This document shows, piece after piece, positions 7,242 to 8,364 of a stretch of 11,358 bases of DNA (position 1 is its first letter; every line of letters starts with the position of its first letter). The position numbers were made by a program, and so were the translations under genes. The DNA comes from Escherichia coli (GTDB lineage: Bacteria > Pseudomonadota > Gammaproteobacteria > Enterobacterales > Enterobacteriaceae). The stretch lies in the NCBI RefSeq assembly GCF_003334355.1, contig NZ_QOWP01000054.1; one strand, given 5' to 3'. Under the pieces are notes generated by a model. That model was not told the DNA's origin, ran no database searches, and saw nothing but the letters and a program-made list of their open reading frames with translations.

Positions 7242-7258
7242 TGAACCATCGTGGTGCA
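7242..7258. promoter_or_regulatory. Candidate NtrC enhancer site for nac
   Basis: TGAACC-atcgt-GGTGCA against the NtrC consensus TGCACC-N5-GGTGCA (one mismatch), centred about 130 bp upstream of the sigma54 -24 element. Confidence 0.6.
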
Positions 7259-7375
7259 TACCCTCCTTTTATAGGGCAGGGGAACGCGACTGCTGGTGAA
7301 AAGAGCCAATGACGAATCTATCATAATCTCTTATTTGACAGTTGGTTAGCTTGTACATCAACGCCAAAATAAAAC

Positions 7376-7391
7376 TGGCAAGCATCTTGCA
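7376..7391 (+). promoter_or_regulatory. Sigma54 (RpoN) -24/-12 promoter of nac
   Basis: TGGCAAGCATCTTGCA fits TGGCAC-N5-TTGCA with correctly spaced GG and GC, about 55 bp upstream of the nac ATG. Confidence 0.75.
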
Positions 7392-7446
7392 GTCTGGTTG
7401 TAAGTAATGGCGGCACTTGGGCCGATTCTCAAAAACCGGAGGCAAC

Positions 7447-8364
7447 ATGAACTTCAGACGCCTGAAATACTTCGTAAAAATTGTAGATATTGGTAGCCTG
7501 ACTCAGGCTGCTGAAGTATTGCATATCGCACAACCAGCGCTCAGCCAGCAGGTTGCCACACTGGAAGGTGAGTTAAATCAACAACTTTTGATTCGCACAA
7601 AACGGGGCGTTACGCCAACAGACGCCGGAAAAATTCTCTATACCCATGCGCGGGCCATTTTACGTCAGTGTGAGCAGGCCCAACTGGCGGTGCATAACGT
7701 TGGTCAGTCATTATCGGGGCAAGTCTCGATTGGCTTTGCGCCAGGAACCGCTGCGTCATCCATCACCATGCCCTTATTACAGGCGGTTCGCGCTGAATTC
7801 CCGGAGGTCGTTATCTATCTTCATGAAAATAGTGGTGCAGTGCTTAACGAAAAACTGATAAATCACCAACTCGATATGGCGGTGATTTATGAGCATTCCC
7901 CTGTGGCTGGTGTATCCAGTCAGGCTTTACTGAAAGAAGATCTTTTCCTGGTAGGGACTCAAGATTGTCCGGGGCAAAGCGTTGATGTTAATGCTATTGC
8001 GCAAATGAACCTCTTTCTTCCCAGTGATTACAGTGCTGTTAGACTTCGTGTTGATGAGGCTTTTTCCCTACGGCGACTCACGGCAAAAGTCATTGGTGAA
8101 ATTGAGTCTATTGCCACGCTTACCGCAGCGATTGCCAGCGGCATGGGCGTTGCAGTATTACCCGAATCGGCCGCGCGTTCGTTATGTGGCGCAGTAAACG
8201 GGTGGATGTCACGCATTACCACACCTTCCATGAGTCTCTCTTTGTCATTAAATTTACCCGCCAGAGCGAACTTATCACCACAGGCACAGGCAGTGAAAGA
8301 GTTGTTAATGTCAGTGATGAGTTCTCCAGTGATGGAAAAAAGGCAGTGGCAATTGGTGAGCTAA
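7447..8364 (+). CDS. nac: Nitrogen assimilation control protein Nac (LysR-type transcriptional regulator)
   Basis: 305 aa from ATG 7447 (MNFRRLKYFVKIVDIGSLTQAAEVLHIAQPALSQQV...) with an N-terminal LysR helix-turn-helix. CCGGAGG Shine-Dalgarno 4-5 nt upstream. The track's start at 7417 adds 10 residues with no ribosome-binding site. Confidence 0.92.
   Translation: MNFRRLKYFVKIVDIGSLTQAAEVLHIAQPALSQQVATLEGELNQQLLIRTKRGVTPTDAGKILYTHARAILRQCEQAQLAVHNVGQSLSGQVSIGFAPGTAASSITMPLLQAVRAEFPEVVIYLHENSGAVLNEKLINHQLDMAVIYEHSPVAGVSSQALLKEDLFLVGTQDCPGQSVDVNAIAQMNLFLPSDYSAVRLRVDEAFSLRRLTAKVIGEIESIATLTAAIASGMGVAVLPESAARSLCGAVNGWMSRITTPSMSLSLSLNLPARANLSPQAQAVKELLMSVMSSPVMEKRQWQLVS

Follow-up and report, generated by a model that had tools for sequence, protein, structure and literature searches.

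The nac control region of an Escherichia coli strain: a σ54 promoter and NtrC enhancer identical to those of K-12, with probable accessory sites

Introduction

Can the nitrogen control of nac be read from the DNA upstream of the gene, and are its control elements intact and ordinary in the E. coli strain analysed here? We addressed this question in a stretch of 11,358 nucleotides, the window, from RefSeq assembly GCF_003334355.1 (contig NZ_QOWP01000054.1). An initial annotation, made from the sequence alone, had placed a near-consensus -24/-12 element and an NtrC site in front of nac and had read them as part of the NtrC to Nac cascade. The nac promoter belongs to the same mechanism class as glnAp2, glnK, glnH, and astC, in which a -24/-12 element is combined with upstream NtrC dyads and DNA looping. 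Its original description in E. coli is reportedly that of Muse and Bender in 1998. As set out below, we hold with high confidence that this is the region from which E. coli natively controls nac in response to nitrogen.

Materials and Methods

The σ54 weight matrix was built from 41 other intergenic, sense-oriented K-12 ChIP-seq sites taken from PMC4591121, with nac left out. The transcription start was placed by the rule of the same study, that is, at the motif centre + 19. The NtrC matrix was trained only on orthologous copies of the enhancer dyad (site 1) from other genera. A locus scan with one genome per species gave 80 loci, with Nac at 80–98% identity, from Escherichia, Citrobacter, Enterobacter, Klebsiella, Raoultella, Kosakonia, Kluyvera, Lelliottia, and other genera. 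The comparative set comprised 81 Enterobacteriaceae loci, and information content was computed on 76 distinct non-Escherichia sequences plus the window.

Results

The open reading frame at 7447..8364 was identified as Nac by the NCBIfam equivalog NF008410 (599.5 bits against a cutoff of 309, residues 1–305 of 305) and is likewise annotated as nac by RefSeq; the gene is intact in the window. The longest in-frame reading frame opens at an upstream TTG (7417). We place the start at the ATG (7447..7449), because the arrangement GGAGG-N4-ATG is conserved and the RefSeq annotation agrees. The RefSeq gene order is cobU-cobS-cobT-ldtA, tRNA-Asn (minus strand), nac, cbl, tRNA-Asn, yeeO, and tRNA-Asn, and the locus is syntenic with RefSeq E. 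coli. The three tRNAs are supported by both ARAGORN and Rfam, and an Rfam scan of the window gave no match besides them. In the RefSeq annotation of the identical strain, the segment 154..3600 contains fragments of transposase pseudogenes (of the IS66 family, of the IS4 family, and one without a family name) and a truncated cobalamin-biosynthesis gene upstream of cobU.

The spacer upstream of nac is 100% identical to that of E. coli ATCC 11775 over 471 nt. It was found at 90–100% identity in 5410 of the 5426 complete E. coli genomes, and the nac promoter segment occurs in 5414 of them. Downstream, the gene after nac encodes Cbl, and a scan of 6900..8600 found no intrinsic-terminator-like site between the two genes (8365..8465). 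The corresponding NtrC ChIP-seq target is named 'nac-cbl' (PMC4066584). The gap without a terminator and the name of the target are in keeping with transcription from the nac promoter running on into cbl. The elements of the control region are collected in Table 1.

Table 1. Features of the nac control region in window coordinates, with their information content in the Enterobacteriaceae footprint
Feature	Coordinates	Strand	Details	Bits per position
High-affinity NtrC (NRI/GlnG) dyad TGAACCATCGTGGTGCA (site 1)	7242..7258	.	centre 7250, -152 from predicted start	1.26
Second, weak NtrC-like dyad CCTCCTTTTATAGGGCA (site 2)	7262..7278	.	centre -132, 20 bp downstream of site 1	1.41
Nac-box-like element ATCATAATCTCTTAT (AT-N10-TAT)	7320..7334	.	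centre -75; candidate autorepression site	1.01
σ54 promoter AAAAC-TGGCAAG-CATC-TTGCA	7371..7391	+	GG (-24) 7377..7378, GC (-12) 7389..7390	1.69
Predicted transcription start	7402	+	motif centre 7383 + 19	
5' leader with Shine-Dalgarno GGAGG 7438..7442	7402..7446	+	Shine-Dalgarno-to-ATG block nearly invariant	
nac coding sequence	7447..8364	+	305 aa, LysR family; NF008410 full length, RefSeq annotation	
Three spacers (footprint background)				0.36–0.49

How strong is the promoter motif? The near-consensus -24/-12 element reported by the initial annotation, TGGCAAGCATCTTGCA, lies exactly at 7376..7391 and is the best consensus match in the 11.4-kb window. It is the sole match with at most one mismatch to TGGCACGNNNNTTGCW on both strands of the window, where 0.23 would be expected, and such a match turned up in 46 of 200 shuffled windows. 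When two mismatches were allowed, seven sites were found, of which TGGCAAGCATCTTGCA was the best. With one mismatch, it carries the GG and GC doublets one helical turn apart within TGGCAC-N5-TTGCW. Weight-matrix scoring, which had been proposed as a check, led to the same place: by the leave-one-out matrix, the 17-mer 7375..7391 scores 17.8 bits, the top value on either strand of the window. This score is above the median of the 41 training sites (16.1 bits) and was matched in just 6 of 500 random windows. The next-best matrix match, CTGGCACGCTAAACGCA at 9767..9783 inside yeeO, scores 14.6 bits, and a further one, CTGGCACGACATTTTCG at 4055..4071 inside cobU, scores 14.2 bits; both have a good -24 half and a poor -12 half. 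The main text of the K-12 σ54 ChIP-seq paper makes no mention of yeeO or cobU (PMC4591121).

The predicted start leaves a leader of 45 nt to the nac ATG, in the sense orientation, and the K-12 σ54 table likewise puts the predicted start 45 nt before nac (PMC4591121). The base right after the -12 TTGCA (7392) is polymorphic in E. coli, being G in the window, A in K-12 and 21AR0303, and T in AVS0153 and BLSE177; in other genera, the equivalent base is mostly A. A terminator-like hairpin on the minus strand (7390..7378) was discarded, as it is just the internal dyad of the -24/-12 element (GCAAG-CAT-CTTGC). A conserved RNA hairpin in the nac leader was also rejected: RNAalifold gave no consensus structure, and the E. 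coli leader did not stand out from shuffles (z = 0.33). A short hairpin is possible at 7409..7426, where CGGC (7411..7414) could pair with GCCG (7421..7424), and most genera have GCCAG-N8-CTGGC in the leader. A hand-drawn 5-bp leader helix was paired in 72.8% of cells, with modest covariation.

The claim of an NtrC site at enhancer distance also held. The dyad TGAACCATCGTGGTGCA is found at precisely 7242..7258, centred at -152, and is the best consensus match of the window; it is the single match within three mismatches of TGCACCANNNTGGTGCA. At a limit of one mismatch to this consensus, none of the 200 shuffles yielded any match. The orthologue-trained matrix gives it 15.8 bits, the maximum of the whole window. 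Site 1 fits 13 of the 14 specified positions of TGCACCA-N3-TGGTGCA; the mismatch is a C to A change at position 3 (TGAACC for TGCACC). Because this single mismatch falls on a highly informative base of the left half-site, we regard site 1 as good but not optimal. Its centre lies inside the range of about 100–160 bp upstream for the NtrC enhancer of a σ54 promoter. Between the enhancer and the promoter (7259..7375), no IHF consensus with at most one mismatch was found.

Are these elements the same as those known from K-12? The K-12 derivative C600 agrees fully with the window at both dyads (sites 1 and 2), the Nac box, the -24/-12 element, and the Shine-Dalgarno sequence, and its spacings are the same throughout, with no indels between the control elements. 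K-12 and the window differ by a few spacer substitutions, by the base at 7392 (A in K-12, G in the window), and by a 1-bp deletion upstream of site 1, and none of these differences hits a conserved position. Furthermore, the window 17-mer is identical to the K-12 σ54 ChIP-seq site OS19, CTGGCAAGCATCTTGCA, which is listed as 'experimentally confirmed' with a fold-above-threshold of 24 (PMC4591121, Bonocora et al. 2015), and the window motif centre maps to K-12 position 2060021, the published motif centre of OS19. The same study gives the EcoCyc class 'confirmed' for the K-12 nac σ54 promoter and used nac as the positive control for nitrogen-limited induction, in which nac RNA rises (PMC4591121).

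NtrC occupancy in K-12 has been reported as well, with a 59.6-fold ChIP-seq peak at nac-cbl (PMC4066584). The peak bin (2059941–2060021; Brown et al.) is closer to the promoter than the dyad, which maps to about 2060154; this is within the resolution of ChIP-seq, and the peak does not by itself locate the binding site exactly. In gSELEX, the nac/asnV spacer gave values of 52% with the RpoN holoenzyme, 50% with NtrC, and 86% with both together (PMC8743547). By analogy with this K-12 literature, σ54 and NtrC would be expected to occupy the region, and nitrogen limitation to induce nac, in the present strain.

The comparison across Enterobacteriaceae bears on both the elements and their geometry. 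The σ54 element is present in 81 of 81 loci, with the predicted start 43–49 nt ahead of the nac start codon, or 36 nt in two loci, and NtrC site 1 lies at -150 to -153 in 71 of the 81. In seven Kluyvera-type loci (L038, L047–L049, L058, L060, and L063), site 1 is at -130/-131, that is, 21–22 bp shorter, or about two helical turns. In two Pseudocitrobacter loci (L052 and L054), it is at -140/-141, 11–12 bp shorter, or about one helical turn. These two independent indel classes, with spacing variants near whole helical turns, suggest that the enhancer has to keep its face of the helix. Feng et al. are said to have found in 1995 that nac activation depends on the helical face.

Klebsiella pneumoniae ATCC 13883 is like the window in having site 1 at -152, site 2 at -132, a CTTAT box at -72, and the promoter element TGGCAAGCAAATTGCA, followed by a leader of 46 nt. 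In Klebsiella, the left half-site of site 1 is TGCACC, compared with TGAACC in E. coli. The left arm of site 2 is rearranged (CCTCCTTTTAT in E. coli and TACCCCTAAT in Klebsiella), and its right half also differs (ATAGGGCA and ATGGGGCA, respectively). For the K. aerogenes and K. pneumoniae nac promoter, PMC4740811 and PMC5263251 cite the work of Feng, Goss, Bender & Ninfa (1995).

Within E. coli, the divergent alleles have an invariant site 1, Nac box, and -24/-12 element, and variable spacers. In E. coli 21AR0303 (locus L085, 1..1700), a tyrosine integrase gene and a RelE/ParE toxin gene adjoin the tRNA-Asn gene where the window has ldtA, so that an island appears to have integrated at asnV. 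The nac control elements of this strain are unaltered, except for the variable left arm of site 2.

What, then, binds the second dyad? The family consensus of site 2 is aTACCCCTtATGGGGCA, and its spacing from site 1 is exactly 20 bp in 71 of the 76 loci that have it and 19 bp in the other five. By the NtrC matrix, it scores -4.55 bits, the second-best position of the upstream region and in the top 0.28% of window 17-mers. Across species, the offset of +20 is the only NtrC-like one in the neighbourhood of site 1. With these features, site 2 is probably a low-affinity partner site for NtrC. The K. aerogenes nac enhancer is said to consist of one high-affinity and one low-affinity NtrC site.

An alternative is that site 2 binds some protein other than NtrC or, in E. 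coli, Nac itself, by way of an exact ATA-N9-TAT, ATACCCTCCTTTTAT, at 7258..7272. We consider this unlikely, though it survives better than the other alternatives. The dyad is kept in a non-consensus form (TACCCC...GGGGCA) and is more conserved than site 1 (1.41 and 1.26 bits per position, respectively) despite its negative NtrC log-odds, and the ATA-N9-TAT of E. coli agrees with the Nac ChIP-exo motif at its high-information positions. On the other hand, site 2 is the sole NtrC-like offset beside site 1 in all genera, cooperative NtrC dimers would need just such a rigid spacing of 20 bp, or two helical turns, and in our own comparison site 2 still matches the NtrC ChIP-exo motif at 5 of its 7 high-information positions. 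The ATA-N9-TAT pattern occurs in the window at chance frequency (3 found, 2.46 expected) and is missing from other genera, which carry ATA-N5-TAT. The exact pattern arises from the rearranged left arm of site 2 in E. coli proper and overlaps both that arm and the end of site 1; it was found in E. coli sensu stricto only.

A related and slightly less probable proposal, drawn from the same motifs, is that site 2 serves specifically to set the threshold or is bound by a second factor, and that the ATA-N9-TAT of E. coli might put Nac in competition with the oligomerisation of NtrC on the enhancer. If so, Nac at 7258..7272 would repress its own gene in a second way, peculiar to E. coli. We retain the reading of site 2 as a probable low-affinity NtrC site.

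Between the enhancer and the promoter lies the Nac-box-like element, which has one mismatch to an ATA-N9-TAT-type box; of the five high-information positions in ATAagnaaaanttAT, the motif obtained for E. coli Nac by ChIP-exo (PMC9853098), it agrees with four. The CTTAT of the box is found at -72 ± 1 in 56 of the 81 loci. In K. aerogenes, Nac represses the nac promoter from between the enhancer and the promoter, according to work cited in PMC4740811. Judged by position and motif, the -75 box probably mediates Nac autorepression. The initial annotation had called the promoter complete; its -24/-12 element and NtrC site are indeed present, but the weak NtrC-like dyad and the Nac-box-like element had been left out.

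Neither the Citrobacter freundii complex nor Kluyvera has the Nac box. In the Kluyvera group, the deletion that shortens the enhancer distance takes out the Nac-box region. The C. freundii complex loci keep both NtrC dyads and the σ54 element despite having no Nac box, and this lineage may no longer autorepress nac. The members without CTTAT at -72 are L006, L011, L022, L024, L026, L031, L035, and L036.

Could nac instead be expressed mainly from a σ70 promoter in the spacer, with the σ54 site poised and non-productive? A candidate is GTGAAA-17-TATCAT at 7296..7324, a 9 of 12 match, and many E. coli σ54 sites are bound yet inactive (PMC4591121). However, σ70-like matches occur at chance level (4 found, 2.1 ± 1.4 expected), and the -35 region of this one falls in a non-conserved stretch; the candidate was rejected on these grounds. 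In K-12, moreover, nac RNA goes up under nitrogen limitation, and the σ54 site is listed as an experimentally confirmed promoter. A main role for σ70 is thus very improbable.

Even less credit can be given to the proposal that the NtrC dyad serves the promoter of the divergent tRNA-Asn (asnV) instead of nac. The dyad sits in the shared divergent spacer, and the gSELEX study names both nac and asnV as flanking genes (PMC8743547). The asnV promoter, however, is of a strong σ70 type (TTGACA-17-TAATAT, 7168..7140), and NtrC activates σ54 promoters only. In addition, it is to the nac promoter that the dyad has a fixed distance; another block (7195..7213) is tied in position to the tRNA instead, and its distance to nac changes from locus to locus.

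This block is a palindrome, TTGCTGTCAATTTCAACAA, with the family consensus TTGCTGACAAnnTCAGCAA and 1.56 bits per position. It lies exactly 83 nt from the 5' end of tRNA-Asn in 58 of 60 loci and 179–205 nt from the nac start. Because its distance is constant to the tRNA and variable to nac, we assign it to the tRNA-Asn promoter and reject it as a third NtrC site of the nac enhancer; the asnV promoter is probably activated through this palindrome as an upstream site (Fis-like?). The left boundary of the nac enhancer given earlier, 7242, is thus its true edge. The tRNA-Asn promoter itself is on the minus strand (7140..7168), where its -10 box is followed by the GC-rich discriminator GCGCCCC. The window has three identical tRNA-Asn genes (7046..7121, 9454..9529, and 11278..11353), and a GCAAAC motif is common to all three of their promoters, about 30 nt upstream of the -35 boxes; in the other two, this related motif takes the same relative place as the palindrome does at asnV.

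Finally, that the two motifs match their consensus by chance and regulate nothing can be dismissed as next to impossible: the frequency of σ54 matches in shuffled windows makes the promoter motif alone not decisive, but the NtrC dyad appeared in no shuffle, both motifs are conserved in sequence and position over the 81 loci and the flanking spacers are not, and the identical K-12 sequence is bound by σ54 and NtrC.

Discussion

The elements of the nac control region are present in this strain, single in the window, conserved among Enterobacteriaceae, regular in their geometry, and identical to those of K-12. The reading of the locus as part of the NtrC to Nac cascade is borne out by the agreement of the motifs, the intact nac gene, the K-12 identity, and the published σ54 and NtrC occupancy in K-12, and nothing in the data contradicts the NtrC/σ54 model. 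The further suggestion that the module is functional in this strain stands as far as the elements are concerned, which are intact and identical to K-12; activity also needs rpoN and glnG, and rpoN, glnG, and glnL lie beyond the window.

How would the region work? σ54 RNA polymerase would sit in a closed complex on 7376..7391, unable by itself to begin transcription. Under nitrogen limitation, phosphorylated NtrC would bind to the -152 dyad and probably also to its poor neighbour, at a distance of 20 bp on the same face of the DNA. NtrC would then oligomerise, loop about 130 bp of DNA, and use ATP to open the promoter, with transcription expected to begin near 7402. The Nac protein made in this way would probably bind the -75 box between the enhancer and the promoter and dampen its own synthesis.

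The glnAp2 promoter has two high-affinity NtrC sites. Unlike glnAp2, nac has one good and one poor NtrC site, plus a candidate site for its own product between the enhancer and the promoter. With one good and one poor enhancer site, nac should need more phosphorylated NtrC than glnAp2 and fire late in starvation. The mismatch in site 1 and the poor partner site are consistent with nac being a high-threshold Ntr promoter, and the threshold of nac has been described as being above that of glnAp2, with more NtrC needed (PMC3870243).

In conclusion, the control elements of nac are intact and ordinary in this strain and the same as in the K-12 model; they are already known biology, as the initial annotation itself had said. 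The strain carries the intact entry point of the NtrC to Nac cascade, which matters little past annotation. The comparison adds the rigid geometry of the enhancer, spacing variants of approximately whole helical turns, and lineages without a Nac box, and these details could help to plan mutational studies of how the threshold is set at weak σ54 enhancers.
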